Shown: piece by piece, positions 935-26,956 of the stretch
How the letters are laid out: each line of letters begins with the position of its first letter
Numbering within the stretch: position 1 is the stretch's first letter
IMG/VR virus record: IMGVR_UViG_2718218309_000005
Location: 1-37,363 of that record
Direction: 5' to 3' (one strand)
Length of the DNA stretch: 37,363 nucleotides
From: a virus
Lineage: Duplodnaviria > Heunggongvirae > Uroviricota > Caudoviricetes
Notes under the pieces: model-generated
Told to the model about the DNA's origin: nothing
The model's input: only the letters and a program-made list of their open reading frames with translations
Database searches by the model: none
Made by a program: the position numbers and the translations under genes

Positions 935-2620
935 GTGAATATAAACGTCGCCGAATTGTTAAATGGGAATTACATTCTGTTATTATTTGTGGTCCTCGCG
1001 CTTGGGCTATGTCTCGGAAAGTTACGACTTGGTTCGATCCAACTGGGTAATTCCATTGGCGTTTTAGTCGTATCGCTGTTATTAGGCCAACAACATTTCA
1101 GCATTAACACCGATGCGCTTAATCTTGGCTTTATGCTGTTTATTTTCTGCGTCGGGGTCGAAGCCGGACCGAACTTTTTTTCCATTTTTTTTCGCGATGG
1201 GAAAAATTACCTAATGTTAGCACTGGTGATGGTTGGCAGTGCGCTGGTGATCGCCTTAGGGTTAGGTAAGCTGTTTGGCTGGGATATTGGCCTGACGGCC
1301 GGTATGTTAGCAGGCTCTATGACGTCGACACCGGTTCTGGTCGGTGCTGGCGATACACTGCGTCATTCCGGCATGGAAAGCAGGCAGCTCTCACTGGCAC
1401 TGGATAATCTGAGCCTCGGGTATGCCTTAACCTATTTAATCGGTCTGGTGAGTTTGATTGTTGGTGCGCGTTACTTGCCGAAATTGCAGCATCAGGACTT
1501 ACAGACCAGCGCCCAGCAAATCGCCCGCGAACGTGGCCTGGACACTGATGCCAACCGTAAGGTTTATTTACCGGTGATCCGCGCCTATCGCGTCGGCCCG
1601 GAGCTGGTGGCCTGGACCGACGGCAAAAATCTGCGTGAACTGGGTATTTATCGACAAACCGGCTGCTACATTGAACGTATTCGACGTAACGGGATTCTGG
1701 CAAATCCAGACGGTGATGCCGTGCTACAAATGGGCGATGAAATAGCGTTGGTAGGCTATCCCGACGCCCATGCCCGACTCGATCCCAGCTTCCGTAACGG
1801 TAAAGAAGTTTTCGATCGTGACCTTCTCGACATGCGTATCGTCACTGAAGAAGTGGTCGTTAAAAACCATAACGCTGTAGGTAAACGTCTCGCACAACTG
1901 AAGTTGACCGATCACGGTTGCTTCCTTAACCGCGTCATTCGTAGCCAGATTGAGATGCCGATAGATGACAACGTCGTGCTTAACAAAGGTGACGTTTTAC
2001 AAGTCAGCGGTGATGCCCGTCGCGTAAAAACCATCGCCGATCGCATCGGCTTTATCTCGATTCACAGCCAGGTCACTGACCTGCTGGCATTTTGCGCCTT
2101 CTTTGTTATTGGGCTGATGATCGGGATGATCACCTTCCAGTTCAGCACATTCAGTTTCGGCATGGGGAACGCTGCCGGGTTGTTATTCGCCGGAATTATG
2201 CTGGGCTTTATGCGTGCTAACCACCCGACCTTCGGTTACATTCCGCAAGGTGCATTAAGCATGGTGAAAGAGTTCGGCTTGATGGTGTTTATGGCAGGCG
2301 TTGGTCTGAGCGCCGGTAGCGGTATTAATAACGGCCTGGGCGCGATTGGCGGTCAGATGTTGATTGCCGGATTAATTGTCAGTCTTGTGCCCGTGGTTAT
2401 CTGTTTCTTGTTCGGTGCTTATGTATTGCGAATGAACCGCGCACTGTTGTTCGGCGCAATGATGGGCGCACGCACCTGCGCGCCGGCAATGGAGATCATC
2501 AGTGATACAGCTCGCAGTAACATCCCTGCGCTGGGCTACGCGGGCACCTACGCAATCGCCAACGTCCTGCTGACGCTGGCAGGGACAATCATCGTCATGG
2601 TATGGCCAGGATTAGGATAA
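935..2620 (+). CDS. ybjL: putative AAE-family transporter YbjL
   Basis: 561-aa polytopic membrane protein with duplicated transporter halves around a central soluble domain; length matches E. coli YbjL. Confidence 0.85.
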
Positions 2621-2855: not shown

Positions 2856-3071
2856 TCAAAGAGAGAGCGCCCCCTGTCCTGATTTCATTGGATGCGGCTG
2901 AACCGGATTTGACTCTTTTGGCGTTGCAATCGAACGAACAAAAGTTTCATGGGTTACAAAAGTATGGCTGCAGTTAATATTCTGGCACTGGTTGTAACGC
3001 TCTTTGGTCAATGAAGATACCTGAAAACTGCTGCGAGTATGGGCGGCACTTCCACACAGTGGGCAAATCAT
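2856..3071 (-). CDS. ogr: Ogr/B-family zinc-finger late-gene activator
   Basis: CPLCG...C-x2-C zinc-finger pattern (MICPLCGSAAH...ERYNQCQNINCSHTF); start chosen at internal Met (ORF-track codon 13) to give ~71 aa like P2 Ogr. Confidence 0.85.
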   Translation of the reverse strand: MICPLCGSAAHTRSSFQVSSLTKERYNQCQNINCSHTFVTHETFVRSIATPKESNPVQPHPMKSGQGALSL

Positions 3072-3164
3072 CATTTTTCGAGTTCTCCCCATTTTTGCTA
3101 AATTCACAATAATGATACCGCATTATTCCATTTTGCAAACTTAAAAGTTCTCCATTGCGAAGAA

Positions 3165-10002: not shown

Positions 10003-10078
10003 AGTGGCGAACCTCCTGATTGGATTAGGCTTCGCCCTATGTTGAAGTGATTGTGCCTGACAAACAGCTAAGCGCAGT

Positions 10079-10096
10079 TGTGTCGTTATTCACACA
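10079..10096 (-). promoter_or_regulatory. candidate Ogr/B activator site (TGT-N12-ACA) of late promoter PF
   Basis: tgt gtcgttattcac aca, centred ~85 bp upstream of the FI start codon. Confidence 0.5.
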
Positions 10097-10144: not shown

Positions 10145-10711
10145 TCAGGGGGATTCATTGATCTTATTTGCCGGAAATTTTCTATAAATGGTAGAAACGC
10201 CTACATCAAAAATCAGTGCAATACGCTGTCTTGATTCTCCGGCCTCGAGTAAACGCCCAATCTGTGCCCACTGTTCGGTGGTCAACTTAGGACGGCGTCC
10301 ACCTACTCTGCCTTTGGCACGAGCTGCAGCCAGCCCTGCCCTGGTACGTTCAACTATCAGTTCGCGTTCCATTTCAGCCAGGGCACCCATGACATGAAAA
10401 AAGAAACGGCCCATTGGGGTACTGGTATCAATACTGTCAGTCAGGCTTCTGAAATTCACACCACGCTGGCGCAACTCTTCTATCAGCGTAACAAGATGCC
10501 GCATACTGCGCCCCAACCTGTCCAGCTTCCAGACAACCAGCGTGTCTCCTGCCGATAGTGTCCTGAGTAGTTTTTTCAGCCCCGGTCTGTCGGACTTAGT
10601 GCCACTGATTTTGTCCTCAAAAATCTGCTCACATCCCGCGCAGTTCAGTGCATTACGTTGCAAATCGGTGTTCTGGTCATTTGTTGACACGCGTACATAG
10701 CCAATAAGCAT
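10145..10711 (-). CDS. serine DNA invertase (Hin/Gin/Cin/Pin family)
   Basis: N-terminus MLIGYVRVSTNDQNTDLQ with the catalytic Ser motif, plus a C-terminal HTH; lies directly outside the invertible segment. Confidence 0.85.
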   Translation of the reverse strand: MLIGYVRVSTNDQNTDLQRNALNCAGCEQIFEDKISGTKSDRPGLKKLLRTLSAGDTLVVWKLDRLGRSMRHLVTLIEELRQRGVNFRSLTDSIDTSTPMGRFFFHVMGALAEMERELIVERTRAGLAAARAKGRVGGRRPKLTTEQWAQIGRLLEAGESRQRIALIFDVGVSTIYRKFPANKINESP

Positions 10712-15276: not shown

Positions 15277-15622
15277 TCTCTGCTCCTGTTGATACGAAAA
15301 GGGAAACAGGCACACCGTTATTACGCCGCCCGGTCAGCCCCACCACCATTGAACCGTCAAAATTGCTGTTAATGGTGATGGAATCCAGCGTCAGCCGTGG
15401 CTCCCAGCGACTCAGCGCCACATACACTGCCGACATGACCTGCAGGCGTAATGCCGGATTTTGTGGCTGGTCTATCAGTGCCGACAGCAGGGAACCATAT
15501 TCCCGACGGGCAATGCGGCTACCCTGCGGCGTCAGCAAAATGTCCCGCACCGACTGGCGCAGATGGTCAATATCAGTAATGGCTTTACCGCTGGTATTGT
15601 TCATCCCGCTATAAAGCGTCAT
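15263..15622 (-). CDS. W: baseplate wedge protein gpW
   Basis: 119 aa; P2 W-like. Confidence 0.85.
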   Translation of the reverse strand: MTLYSGMNNTSGKAITDIDHLRQSVRDILLTPQGSRIARREYGSLLSALIDQPQNPALRLQVMSAVYVALSRWEPRLTLDSITINSNFDGSMVVGLTGRRNNGVPVSLFVSTGAENGSD

Positions 15623-16197
15623 ACCGGGCCTCCGGTTGTGTCGCCGCCTTTCAGGACGCCAGTATGCTGATGTGCATCAACCACAATTCCGTTAGAACTC
15701 ATTGCACCGCCGCCCTGGGTAACACCACCATTGATCACTACTTCGCTGTTAATGCGTGTGCGGTCAGCCTCCAGTACAAACTCACTGGTTTTCATGGTGA
15801 TATTGTCGGCGGTCTCAATGACCATTGATTTGATGCCCCTGACATACCAGCGCCCGGTGGCGGGTTCGTATTCAAACCAGCCTCCGTCCGGGTATTCCGT
15901 CACGTTGCCGTCCTCAGAGCCTGAAGGTGGCGGAAACTGGTTTGAGTAGACCGCAGGCAGGGCAAACGCGGTTTCCAGATTACCGCCCAGACTCAGCAGC
16001 ACCACCTGCTCACCTTCCGATGGTCGCCACCATGTCCGGGCATTTCCTGCACGCAGCGTCAGCCAACTGATCCAGTTAGTTTCAAGGTCGCCCGTTTTCA
16101 CTCGGCAAAGCCAGTTTTCCCTGTCCACTTCGGTGACTACCCCAGTGCGGATCAGGTTGGTGATAAGGCGCATGATTTCGGTTAATTGTGCGTTCAT
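15619..16197 (-). CDS. V: baseplate spike protein gpV
   Basis: 192 aa; P2 V-like. Confidence 0.85.
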   Translation of the reverse strand: MNAQLTEIMRLITNLIRTGVVTEVDRENWLCRVKTGDLETNWISWLTLRAGNARTWWRPSEGEQVVLLSLGGNLETAFALPAVYSNQFPPPSGSEDGNVTEYPDGGWFEYEPATGRWYVRGIKSMVIETADNITMKTSEFVLEADRTRINSEVVINGGVTQGGGAMSSNGIVVDAHQHTGVLKGGDTTGGPV

Positions 16198-16242
16198 GTA
16201 AAAATGTTAAACTAAATGGAATTTCAGTCGATAACATACCGT

Positions 16243-16260
16243 TGTATGATGGATGGCACA
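16243..16260 (-). promoter_or_regulatory. candidate Ogr/B activator site (TGT-N12-ACA) of late promoter PV
   Basis: tgt atgatggatggc aca in the V upstream intergenic region. Confidence 0.45.
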
Positions 16261-16304
16261 TTACAACTGAAAATTAACGATAAATAAAATCAACGGAAAA
16301 AATA

Positions 16305-17120
16305 ATGCACTGCAGATATTGCGAACAAGATGGAATAATAGAAAGAGAACATATTATCCCTAAATTTATATATAAATATCAAAAAGAATCTGGAGATCGT
16401 TTTATAGGCTGGAACGAGAGAGCAAATGATATAATTGGTGGTGAGGCAACAATTGCCGATGTTTGTAAAACATGCAATGGTGGAGCATTAAGTTTTTTAG
16501 ATGATTATGGAAGTCAGTTTTTAGCCAGAAACGGTTTCTTAACCCAACTTTATCTAAAGACAAAAACGACTATAACTTATGATTATCATTTATTGCTACG
16601 CTGGTTAATGAAAATTTCTTACAACTCGGCAAGCGCGGTCAATGATCCATCCACACATATTTTTGGCGCATATAAAGATTATATTCTCCGCGGAGAACCT
16701 TTGCCTTCAGAAAAAGATGTCATGCTCTTCGCTGGACTGCTCATGCCTCTTAAACTTACTGACGAGCAAAAAAGCGAACTTAATATACCTACAAGTGAAG
16801 ACAACCTTTGCTCTCCCTTTAAAATGAGAATAACCAAAAATGACCCTGTTCTGTTACGCAGCGGTATTATTTTAAAAGGTATATTTTTTGGAAGCATATT
16901 TTTTTATCTCGTTATAACTGAAAAATCAGCCTTAATAAGTAAAAGTTATTTGAAAAACAAAATTATAAAGAATGAAAAAGTAAAACTTATCAATCCGTCA
17001 AGTAGCGAGATGCTTCTACCAAACTGTGGAAAAAACTGGATAACTGCAAGTGAAACCCAGCTAAAAAAAGAGATATCTAATTTAGGGATGGAGCATATCC
17101 ATAAAAAATTAAAAATATGA
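16305..17120 (+). CDS. HNH-motif protein (cargo gene, opposite strand to the late operons)
   Basis: N-terminus C-x2-C ... EHIIPK ... C-x2-C-N arrangement typical of HNH nucleases; AT-rich; ~210-aa C-terminal extension of unknown fold. Confidence 0.55.
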   Translation: MHCRYCEQDGIIEREHIIPKFIYKYQKESGDRFIGWNERANDIIGGEATIADVCKTCNGGALSFLDDYGSQFLARNGFLTQLYLKTKTTITYDYHLLLRWLMKISYNSASAVNDPSTHIFGAYKDYILRGEPLPSEKDVMLFAGLLMPLKLTDEQKSELNIPTSEDNLCSPFKMRITKNDPVLLRSGIILKGIFFGSIFFYLVITEKSALISKSYLKNKIIKNEKVKLINPSSSEMLLPNCGKNWITASETQLKKEISNLGMEHIHKKLKI

Positions 17121-17164
17121 TATTCGTTAACAACGAATAAATTAGATTAACCAAATTAGTTGGC

Positions 17165-17611
17165 TCATTTAAACAGCCACTGATGCAATATATCTCCAAT
17201 GACAGACTGCATCTTGTTATTGATACCAAGCAACCGCCGCTCTGCATAACGCACTTCCGGTCCTTTGCGACTGACGCGATCGCGCAGGCCGTAATGGTGA
17301 ACACGGGCAATACGCTGTACCTTACCTTCAAACTGCACGCTGGCAGAGTCGGCGCTGGCAGCAGTTTTCAGGTATTTTGTGGTGCGCAGCTTTGCAAACA
17401 TCTGACGTTTGATGCGCCCTTTTTTACTTCGTGCTGTTACCCGTCGCGGTTCATAGCTGCTGCCGTCAGGGTTGCGCTGCATCCTGATATTCTGCTGCTG
17501 TGTCCGGCGCAGTTCCTGCGCCAGCTGGCGCATCATGCGGCTTCTCGTGGCTGGTTCCAGATTCGCCAGCAAGGCACTCAGCCAGTCGACCACCTTCTGC
17601 AGTTCAGCCAC
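17165..17611 (-). CDS. S: tail completion protein gpS
   Basis: 148 aa; P2 S-like. Confidence 0.85.
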   Translation of the reverse strand: MAELQKVVDWLSALLANLEPATRSRMMRQLAQELRRTQQQNIRMQRNPDGSSYEPRRVTARSKKGRIKRQMFAKLRTTKYLKTAASADSASVQFEGKVQRIARVHHYGLRDRVSRKGPEVRYAERRLLGINNKMQSVIGDILHQWLFK

Positions 17612-23050: not shown

Positions 23051-23068
23051 TGTACCGACAACCACACA
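23051..23068 (-). promoter_or_regulatory. candidate Ogr/B activator site (TGT-N12-ACA) in the divergent O/P late promoter region
   Basis: tgt accgacaaccac aca; shares the extended ..CACACAAA.. with the PF site. Confidence 0.5.
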
Positions 23069-23114
23069 AACCGCAGGCGGGGAAAGCCTTCATTCAAGGC
23101 TGTAGGTTTGTGCC

Positions 23115-24881
23115 ATGAACACCACACTGACACCCGCAGATCTCGATCCCCGTCGGCAGGCCATGCTGCTGTACTTTCAGGGATACCGCGTCGCCCGCAT
23201 TGCTGAAATGCTGGGCGAGAAAGTTGCAACCGTTCACAGCTGGAAAAAACGCGACAAGTGGGGTGACTATGGGCCGCTGGATCAGATGCAGCTCACCACC
23301 GCCGCACGCTACTGCCAGCTCATTATGAAGGAGCACAAAGAAGGGAAAGATTTCAAAGAGATTGACCTGCTGGCGCGCCAGTCGGAGCGCCACGCGCGGA
23401 TCGGCAAGTTTAACAATGGCGGCAACGAAGCCGACTTAAACCCTAACGTCGCCAACCGCAACAAAGGCCCACGCCGTCAGCCGGAAAAGAATGTTTTCAC
23501 CGATGAGCAGATTGAGAAGCTGGAAGAAATCTTCCATTCCTCCATGTTCAACTACCAGCGCCACTGGTGGGAAGCCGGAAAAACCAACCGCATCCGCAAC
23601 CTGCTGAAGTCACGCCAGATCGGCGCGACCTTTTACTTTGCCCGTGAAGCCCTGATTGACGCTCTGCTTACCGGACGTAACCAGATTTTCCTTTCTGCCA
23701 GTAAGGCACAGGCCCACGTCTTCAAGCAGTACATCATCGACTTCGCCAAAGAAGTCGAGGTGGAGCTGAAAGGCGATCCGATGGTGCTTCCTAACGGGGC
23801 CACGCTTTACTTCCTCGGCACCAATGCCCGCACGGCGCAGAGTTACCACGGCAACCTGTATCTGGATGAATATTTCTGGATACCGAAATTCCAGGAGCTG
23901 CGCAAAGTGGCTTCCGGTATGGCTATTCACAAAAAATGGCGACAAACCTATTTTTCCACGCCATCCAGCCTGACCCACAGTGCTTATCCGTTCTGGTCCG
24001 GTGCGCTGTTCAACCGTGGACGCAACAAAGCTGACAAGGTGGACATCGACCTGTCCCACAGCAATCTGGCCCCCGGCCTGCTGTGCGCAGACGGGCAATA
24101 CCGCCAGATAGTCACCGTGGAAGATGCGGTGCGCGGCGGCTGTAACCTGTTCGACCTCGACCAGCTACGCATGGAGTACAGCCCGGACGAATACCAGAAC
24201 CTGCTGATGTGCGAGTTCGTGGACGATCTCGCGTCCGTGTTCCCGCTCAGCGAACTGCAGGCGTGCATGGTGGACAGTTGGGAAGTCTGGACCGACTTTC
24301 ATGCACTGGCCCTGCGCCCGTTTGGCTGGCGCGAGGTGTGGATCGGTTATGACCCGGCAAAAGGTACGCAGAACGGCGACAGCGCCGGATGCGTGGTGGT
24401 GGCACCGCCAGCCGTGCCAGGCGGTAAGTTTCGCATTCTTGAGCGTCACCAGTGGCGCGGGATGGACTTCCGCGCCCAGGCGGACGCCATCAAAAAACTG
24501 ACCGAACAGTACAACGTGACCTATATCGGCATCGACTCGACAGGTGTCGGTCACGGGGTTTACGAGAACGTGAAAGCGTTTTTTCCAGCCGTCCGGGAGT
24601 TTGTCTACAACCCCAACGTTAAAAACGCCCTGGTACTCAAGGCCTACGACATTATCAGCCACCGCCGTCTGGAGTTTGACGCCGGACACACCGACATAGC
24701 GCAGTCATTTATGGCAATCCGTCGCGCCACCACCGCCAGCGGCAACCGCCCGACCTATGAAGCCAGCCGCAGCGAAGAAGCCAGCCACGCCGATCTGGCC
24801 TGGGCAACGATGCACGCTCTGTTTAACGAACCGCTGCAGGGCGAATCCGCCAATACCAGCAATATTGTGGAGATTTTTTGA
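23115..24881 (+). CDS. P: terminase ATPase (large) subunit gpP
   Basis: 588 aa; P2 P-like. Confidence 0.9.
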   Translation: MNTTLTPADLDPRRQAMLLYFQGYRVARIAEMLGEKVATVHSWKKRDKWGDYGPLDQMQLTTAARYCQLIMKEHKEGKDFKEIDLLARQSERHARIGKFNNGGNEADLNPNVANRNKGPRRQPEKNVFTDEQIEKLEEIFHSSMFNYQRHWWEAGKTNRIRNLLKSRQIGATFYFAREALIDALLTGRNQIFLSASKAQAHVFKQYIIDFAKEVEVELKGDPMVLPNGATLYFLGTNARTAQSYHGNLYLDEYFWIPKFQELRKVASGMAIHKKWRQTYFSTPSSLTHSAYPFWSGALFNRGRNKADKVDIDLSHSNLAPGLLCADGQYRQIVTVEDAVRGGCNLFDLDQLRMEYSPDEYQNLLMCEFVDDLASVFPLSELQACMVDSWEVWTDFHALALRPFGWREVWIGYDPAKGTQNGDSAGCVVVAPPAVPGGKFRILERHQWRGMDFRAQADAIKKLTEQYNVTYIGIDSTGVGHGVYENVKAFFPAVREFVYNPNVKNALVLKAYDIISHRRLEFDAGHTDIAQSFMAIRRATTASGNRPTYEASRSEEASHADLAWATMHALFNEPLQGESANTSNIVEIF

Positions 24882-25951: not shown

Positions 25952-26956
25952 TTATTCTTCTGAATCATCATAAACATCCATTCCTTCGGTCTGATTTCTA
26001 ATATAAGAAGTCCCCATAGAATTAGCAATCGCAGTCCGAATTAACCCTACATGAGTGAAAAACACCCCTAACCTAGCACGCTTTAACTCAGACTCATCAT
26101 CATAGTCATCTTCATTACTTATAATTCTTCTAACCATTGCCTTATCTTCGTCAATAGCCGAAGGTAGCCCACTCTTTAAAGCGTCAATACACTCACCTAC
26201 AGTTATAATTTTATTTTTAATTAATTCAGAAAGCAAATCATCATAATTTTCATCATCAGATTTATTATCAGGTGGTAATTCACTTGCAGCTATCATTTTC
26301 AGCAATTCTACGTCAAGCATAGTTCCTCTATCTAGTCTGCTTGTCTCAACATACCCCTCACGCTCTGATAACACTCTTTCAAATTCGAAATCAACGACTT
26401 CAAGCAAAGCAGATACTCTATTAATTGCTCGCCTAAGAGGAAGTGGAACACTTTGCTCTTTTTTGTATTGCAGTTTATGAGATGCTGCAGCCCAAATATG
26501 CTGAGAAAGCGTTCGTATTTGCACCTCCACTTTCATATTTTTAAAATCACTAAAGGATGGAACTCTTAGCCATTCTTCTGGAGGTTGTATTACATAATGA
26601 TGAGATTGGTACCCAAATCTATCCTCATCCAGTTCATCAAGTTTATTCTCTTGCTTCAAAATAATGAAATGTTCTTTCAGACAAGATATAACCTTTTCAA
26701 CATCTCGCTTAAATAGCATTATTAATCGGATTCCAACATAATCATCCAAGTCAACTATTGACTCAATCTTTAGAGGTTTTCGGTTATCCTTATTAATAAT
26801 AGAACTTAATGTTTTGACACGGCTTTCAATTGGAACCCCTAAAGACAATTTATTCTCCGACAAAATAACATCAATTTGCTCAACCATAACTCGTCTGAAC
26901 AATTCCGCAACTGAGCCGTAAATTGAATGCTGTTCTTTTAATTCTTCGTCTGTCAT
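25952..26956 (-). CDS. RelA/SpoT-domain nucleotidyltransferase (toxSAS-like; candidate CapRel-type fused toxin-antitoxin)
   Basis: Synthetase-domain signature ..RVKTLSSIINK..RK..IVDLDDYVGIRLI..GYQSHHYVI..VEVQIRTLSQHIWAAASHKLQYK; ~140-aa acidic C-terminal extension; AT-rich; no adjacent small antitoxin ORF. Confidence 0.65.
   Translation of the reverse strand: MTDEELKEQHSIYGSVAELFRRVMVEQIDVILSENKLSLGVPIESRVKTLSSIINKDNRKPLKIESIVDLDDYVGIRLIMLFKRDVEKVISCLKEHFIILKQENKLDELDEDRFGYQSHHYVIQPPEEWLRVPSFSDFKNMKVEVQIRTLSQHIWAAASHKLQYKKEQSVPLPLRRAINRVSALLEVVDFEFERVLSEREGYVETSRLDRGTMLDVELLKMIAASELPPDNKSDDENYDDLLSELIKNKIITVGECIDALKSGLPSAIDEDKAMVRRIISNEDDYDDESELKRARLGVFFTHVGLIRTAIANSMGTSYIRNQTEGMDVYDDSEE

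Follow-up and report, generated by a model that had tools for sequence, protein, structure and literature searches.

Probable assignment of a canonical PV late promoter to an exchanged S/V cassette of a P2-like prophage

Does a dyad-symmetric activator site that lies between two divergent phage genes control one of them or both? The question is raised by a P2-like (Peduoviridae) prophage with late genes V and S on the minus strand, analysed here over the whole 37,363 nt of IMG/VR record IMGVR_UViG_2718218309_000005 (the window). Gene V (15619-16197, minus strand), which encodes the baseplate spike and is the first gene of the V-W-J-I-H operon, was recognized by the Phage_base_V (65.7 bits) and GpV Apex (26.5 bits) profiles. 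The ORF map places a cargo ORF of 271 aa with an HNH_5-like N-terminal motif (16305-17120, plus strand) divergent from V and convergent with S. The V-cargo intergenic region (16198-16304) measures 107 bp, and reading its sequence directly gives the dyad TGTATGATGGATGGCACA at 16243-16260, in which the spacer ATGATGGATGGC separates the two half-sites (TGT-ATGATGGATGGC-ACA). Between the dyad and the V ATG lie 45 nt, and between the dyad and the cargo ATG 44 nt; counted from the dyad centre (16251.5), the distances are 54.5 nt and 53.5 nt, respectively. An earlier sequence-only reading had this location and these distances right, its 46 and 45 bp being the same gaps counted to the first base of the start codons, and it was also right that dyad and cargo gene occupy a single short intergenic region, the cargo (AT-rich, as it turns out) pointing away from V. 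It had gone on to suggest that the cargo could be driven divergently by the same activator-bound site, or that the insert had pushed PV closer to V than is usual.

The motif alone is no evidence of a promoter, because bare TGT-N12-ACA is not enriched in the window: eight matches were found, against 9.66 ± 3.1 expected from shuffles. Three of the eight nevertheless fall at places where late promoters are expected, namely 16243 (PV), 10079 (PF) and 23051 (PO/PP). We therefore turned to relatives, and compared 84 loci (labels including L001, L002 and L006-L085) consisting of the window, 3 GenBank phages and 80 IMG/VR contigs. A locus was included if its V homologue was at least 94% identical to the window V, and the IMG/VR contigs are the best 80 of about 600 or more matches per V lineage. 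The lineage of the window phage includes Escherichia phage 500465-1 (Wadgaonvirus), Cartapus (Elveevirus) and the Klebsiella phages KP12 and 4LV2017.

In 84/84 loci, the best 80 IMG/VR contigs included, the V ATG is preceded by an exact TGT-N12-ACA whose near end lies 45-48 nt away, and this conserved position spans 10 mutually unrelated upstream sequences. The S-V junction is empty in 65 loci, with a gap of 68 bp, and L060 has the same upstream sequence as the empty sites with an S-V gap of 120 bp. The remaining 18 loci carry nine different cassettes of 550-2129 bp, with V-proximal sequences that are mutually unrelated. The site stands 46 nt from the V ATG in the 66 empty-junction relatives, 45-48 nt in the other cassettes and 45 nt in the window. 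An 11th version of PV was found separately in L089, beside a cargo homologue of 46% identity, and there too the dyad is 46 nt from V. Since a match at one of the four allowed positions has a chance of ~0.001 per independent sequence, and yet every sequence has one, the dyad must be under selection. As far as conservation can tell, the comparison shows that the PV dyad is functional.

These data bear directly on the view that TGT-N12-ACA arose at random in AT-rich DNA and that the true PV lies elsewhere. The count of bare motifs (8, with 9.7 expected) is what such a view would predict. It is hardly credible all the same, given the retention of the position across unrelated sequences in all 84 loci, the presence of the motif at the same distance in the 68-bp S-V gap of cargo-less relatives, a matching -10 element (see below), and the agreement of the annotated site and start in P2. 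For P2, site positions and transcription starts were taken from the RefSeq annotation (NC_001895). In that record positions 10239-10266 are labelled 'activator binding site; activation of pV promoter', and position 10308, where the V CDS begins, is labelled 'transcription start site for V operon'. The identification of the dyad as the PV late-promoter activator site in the sequence-only reading is thus borne out, both by the position conserved in 84/84 loci and by the like geometry annotated in P2. The supposed displacement of PV towards V is refuted by the relatives, in which the spacing is normally 45-48 nt (46 nt in empty sites), against 45 nt here. P2 agrees: from the centre of its PV site to the annotated start there are 55.5 nt, as against 54.5 nt from centre to V ATG here.

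The ORF map places PV immediately upstream of the V-W-J-I-H operon, a position kept in 84/84 loci. In a weight-matrix scan, the best sigma-70 candidate on the minus strand was the hexamer TAACAT (16204-16209, read from 16209 to 16204), which spans -12 to -7, counted from the A of the V start codon, and puts the predicted start at 16197. Its best partner at -35, TCGACT, stands 16 bp away, and together the two score no higher than random sequence does. A at -11 and T at -7 from the V ATG are found in 10/11 unrelated PV versions. In the remaining version, as in P2 and 186, the -10 positions are off by one base and the dyads lie 1-2 nt further away. None of 13 versions has a Shine-Dalgarno sequence ahead of V; in contrast, FI in the window has an AGGAGG Shine-Dalgarno. 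The P2 annotation and the absent Shine-Dalgarno place the predicted PV start on the first base (16197) of the V start codon (16195-16197, minus strand). With the start predicted on the first base of V and a Shine-Dalgarno in no version, V is most likely read from a leaderless message throughout the family.

The region was also inspected for other signals. A promoter and terminator scan of the intergenic region found none, and an Rfam search of 15900-17400 gave nothing relevant. Imperfect inverted repeats surround the dyad (16222-16280). A repeat search gave arms at 16228-16246 and 16262-16280, which are 74% complementary and weak as DNA. At the RNA level, a hairpin of the form TTTCAGT...ACTGAAA can be drawn around the dyad at ~16222-16272, and the minus strand of 16198-16304 gives an RNA whose predicted fold is stronger than that of shuffled sequence (z = -2.9, 2/200).

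The promoter does not stand alone but belongs to an inserted block. In blastn comparisons with the cargo-less relatives KP12 and 500465-1, homology ends at 16197 and restarts at 17219, inside S. These breaks and a GC content of 33%, against 55-60% in the flanks, define a variable cassette at the position of P2 orf30 (16198-17218, the end being approximate). The cassette comprises the whole PV, the cargo ORF, a spacer and an alternative 3′ end of S (approximately its last 18 codons, AT-rich). Gene S itself (17165-17611, minus strand; Phage_tail_S, 140 bits) encodes a tail completion protein, is the last gene of the PO operon and converges with the cargo. Each of the nine cassettes has its own PV of unrelated sequence, in which only the dyad, the 45-48 nt distance and the A-11/T-7 pair are kept. 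Dyad and cargo would share the intergenic region as a result of cassette architecture: with PV supplied by the cassette itself and the junction falling at the first base of V, there is no 5′ leader to conserve.

The cargo is divergent from V in 9/9 cassettes of the window V lineage and in 5/8 of the P2-V lineage. As the other 3/8 cassettes of the P2-V lineage run along V, we dropped a universal divergent orientation of the cargo; divergence is a strong tendency and no rule. In these three cassettes the co-directional cargo lies upstream of an unchanged PV core. Among the empty-site relatives of the P2-V lineage (L093 and 51 other loci), the dyad is imperfect (TGTGCCATTCCCGACACC), with ACC instead of ACA. 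At the other end of the cassette, the sole hairpin between S and the cargo (17121-17139) has an AT-rich 8-bp stem (UAUUCGUU/AACGAAUA) and is a weak terminator candidate. The S-cargo region folds at -11.4 kcal/mol (z = -1.7). With so weak a hairpin, transcription from PO might run on into the cargo in the antisense direction.

The cargo is a member of a rare protein family, which comprises 11 clusters among 5.8 billion proteins. It was found in 9/5426 complete E. coli genomes, where it is annotated as 'hypothetical protein' and whose strains include EA7 (NZ_CP069709) and EC5502 (NZ_CP092647), and a pattern scan of GTDB representative genomes found no relatives. The sequence-only reading had called it an HNH gene. 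In favor of this label, a CxxC...EH...CxxCN motif is conserved in the family, with E15, H16, D52, C54, C57 and N58 invariant in 11 sequences and C3 and C6 at least 90% conserved, and 8/11 family members match HNH_5 (E<=0.01, best E 5.5e-6). Against it, the window protein itself scores 20.3 bits with Pfam HNH_5 (PF14279), below the cut-off of 27.5, and over residues 43-67 only. We therefore keep 'HNH-like' as a weakly supported lead suggested by these profile matches, and no classification. Searches of the cargo against PADLOC and NCBIfam gave no match. A confident structure model was obtained (pLDDT 81.5, pTM 0.86). It had no fold neighbor in the PDB and one in BFVD, an uncharacterised Myoviridae protein.

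The presumed binder of the dyad is also encoded in the window. An Ogr/Delta-type zinc-finger late activator was found at 2856-3107 (minus strand; Pfam Ogr_Delta PF04606, 77.6 bits, cut-off 26.3). P2 Ogr, P4 Delta and 186 B bind such dyads and act via the alpha subunit of RNA polymerase, and transcription from P2-type late promoters is activator- and alpha-dependent, as seen in the rpoA109 phenotype. By homology with these proteins, the prophage activator would bind the dyad at 16243-16260, a prediction with which the dyad sequence, its 84/84 positional conservation and the P2 geometry are consistent. Bound there, it would bring in RNA polymerase at a promoter whose -35 is poor and whose -10 reads TAACAT (16209-16204). 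The predicted start is 16197, the A of the V start codon, or the base beside it, and the resulting V-W-J-I-H message, made during late lytic growth, would be leaderless. The cargo would most likely be under its own weak promoter, located in the same short region and unphased with the activator site. All in all, we consider it probable that the feature is a canonical PV carried in an exchanged cassette, and that the cargo is a separate gene with a likely promoter of its own, unphased with the dyad.

The other late promoters of the window can be placed in the same way. By motif search, the PF activator site (TGTGTGAATAACGACACA on the minus strand) lies at 10079-10096, upstream of the FI sheath gene, with a -10 CAACAT at 10044-10039 and a predicted start near 10032, a geometry like that of PV. 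Similarly, the motif search gave a single activator site between the divergent genes O and P (PO/PP, 23051-23068), and P2 likewise has one site there. The 23051-23068 dyad has its centre 55.5 nt away from the P ATG (23115), and TAGGTT is found at 23103-23108. Gene P may also be leaderless in the window phage, unlike in P2, where the annotated PP start lies 23 nt before P. A second TGT-N12-ACA at 23109-23126, overlapping the P start codon, is probably there by chance.

On the cargo side, the promoter assignment is tentative. Scanning both strands for sigma-70 promoters gave no candidate that beats shuffles, the best on the cargo side scoring 7.1-7.6 against a shuffled median of 6.8 and a 95th percentile of 10.4. 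As no cargo promoter scores above shuffled sequence, the promoter of its own that we ascribe to the cargo is an assumption. The best candidate is TTACAA-18-TAAAAT, a low-confidence assignment with the -10 at 16285-16290 (plus strand) and the -35 at 16261-16266, abutting the dyad. The TAAAAT candidate scores 7.1; its counterparts in the alignment are GAAAAT (L086) and a consensus TATAAT (L089). In L086, the closest homologous cassette (cargo 87% identical), the dyad is identical and the V-proximal half nearly so, and the cargo side has a 7-nt insertion and a GGAG Shine-Dalgarno. From dyad centre to cargo ATG, the three homologous cassettes measure 53.5, 60.5 and 49.5 nt. Relative to the starts predicted from the aligned -10 candidates, the dyad would sit at about -45.5, -52.5 and -38.5, that is, on different helical faces. 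Among unrelated cassettes the distance from dyad centre to cargo ATG ranges from 13 to 230 nt.

These observations bear on how far the dyad can be credited with a role in cargo expression. The activator bound at the dyad might recruit RNA polymerase in both directions, making the cargo a late gene or one inducible by Ogr/Delta. Such activation is mechanistically legitimate, because a single P2 Ogr site serves both PP and PO, with annotated starts 56 and 55 nt either side, and in the window, too, just one dyad stands in the O-P interval. Moreover, the distances from centre to ATG on the two sides of PV nearly mirror each other, with 53.5 nt for the cargo and 54.5 nt for V, which could be more than coincidence. 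However, the -12 to -7 stretch before the cargo ATG reads ACGGAA, with no -10 at the mirror position and without the A-11/T-7 pair of the late promoters. A mirrored start, 55 nt from the centre, would fall inside the cargo start codon (16306-16307), and C3 and C6 of the protein are conserved; the insertion and the Shine-Dalgarno of L086 indicate instead a leadered mRNA. Both spacing and helical phase vary among homologous cassettes, and in 3/8 cassettes of the P2-V lineage the cargo runs along V. The divergent drive of the cargo from the same site, as put forward in the sequence-only reading, is therefore not supported: it lacks a mirror -10, a conserved spacing and a sigma-70 match above shuffles, and we regard it as very unlikely.

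Alternatively, the two genes could be linked by competition, with a cargo promoter that overlaps the dyad, is on in the lysogen and goes off when the activator binds, and with PO read-through antisense to the cargo adding to the effect. Two forms can be drawn, one with a -35 abutting ACA and one with TATGAT inside the dyad as the -10. Such a promoter would suit the window, where TTACAA-18-TAAAAT begins one base after ACA, and L089, where the consensus TATAAT is 17 bp from TACACA in the cargo-proximal half of the dyad. In P2 orf30 and some other cassettes the distance from dyad centre to cargo ATG shrinks to 13-40 nt, which leaves no room there for a cargo promoter clear of both the dyad and the PV core. 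The weakness of the sole S-cargo hairpin, AT-rich as it is, would allow for the antisense part. On the other hand, every candidate promoter is at chance level, the -35 candidate of L086 is 7 nt further from the dyad, and TATGAT may merely reflect a preferred half-site TGTATCA/TGTATGA. We judge the switch a reasonable but unlikely alternative, and control of the nuclease-like cargo by the dyad in either sense, on or off with the late activator, to be about as unlikely. The canonical PV with an independent cargo gene remains the preferred assignment. From their positions in the various cassettes, cargo promoters are nonetheless likely to overlap PV control elements.

Several other features were noted in the rest of the prophage. 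The segment 10145-12256 holds a serine invertase (Resolvase + HTH_7, 180 bits) that adjoins an ORF resembling a tail-fibre C-terminus, together with two oppositely oriented tail-fibre assembly genes (Caudo_TAP), an arrangement reminiscent of the invertible host-range segments of Mu (G) and P1 (C). In the main P2 defence hotspot, next to the portal gene, an ORF of 334 aa (25952-26956, minus strand) contains a RelA_SpoT nucleotidyltransferase domain (71.7 bits); its product is a candidate for a toxic small alarmone synthetase or for a defence protein like CapRel. Replication gene A (27883-30298, minus strand) is split into two overlapping ORFs, of which 29180-30298 corresponds to GPA profile positions 1-174 and 27883-29220 to positions 174-321. 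This split suggests a frameshift, and the prophage may be replication-defective, or gene A may contain a sequence error. Finally, a host-type Asp-Al_Ex / TrkA_C permease gene (935-2620, plus strand) adjoins the ogr end of the prophage, which places one prophage boundary near 2650-2850.

What these results bring is mainly clarification, as the spacing is nowhere unusual. The exchangeable unit between S and V includes the entire PV and has its edge precisely at the first base of V, which fits a leaderless V message. This explains how unrelated cassettes can be swapped without disturbing late expression, since all that must be retained is the dyad, its spacing and two positions of the -10. Where cargo genes lie close to the dyad, the overlap of their promoters with PV elements makes regulatory coupling experimentally tractable. 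If the dyad did control the cargo, cassettes with their own PV would be regulatory modules as well as passengers. Were the cargo switched on, it would be a defence or abortive-infection gene triggered by Ogr, by the Delta of a P4-type satellite or by the activator of a superinfecting P2-like phage; were it switched off, Ogr would silence it by occupying a promoter that overlaps the dyad.

The closest known system is P2 itself. Its PV region (NC_001895, 9439-10308) has the same order of S, a reverse AT-rich nonessential ORF, the activator site and V. The ORF in question, orf30, is nonessential and on the opposite strand, with its ATG 15 nt from the activator site, and the P2 record has a putative terminator between S and orf30. 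In both phages the site centre is ~55 nt from the V ATG, V has no Shine-Dalgarno and an Ogr-type activator is encoded by the phage itself. The two differ in that the cargo protein of the window is unrelated to Orf30 and the window V is ~40% identical to P2 gpV. In addition, the dyad is a perfect TGT-N12-ACA here, whereas the P2 PV site is imperfect (TGT-N11-ACA, or N12-CAA), and the distance from dyad centre to cargo ATG is 53.5 nt here, as against 27 nt in P2.

P2 PP/PO resembles the locus in having a single dyad-symmetric Ogr site between divergent genes, as is also the case at 23051-23068 in the window. Unlike PP/PO, the cargo side of PV has no late-type -10, and the cargo spacing varies among homologous cassettes. 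The cargo and defence hotspots of P2-like phages (the TO, Z/fun and orf30 regions) offer a further parallel, the S/V insert being likewise AT-rich, of a single gene and absent from close relatives; the window cargo, however, matches no known defence family in PADLOC. PMC3091744 counts orf30 as one of three P2 regions holding horizontally acquired genes. The feature studied here is thus the known P2 PV arrangement (orf30, activator site, V), found in another Peduoviridae lineage with a different cargo.
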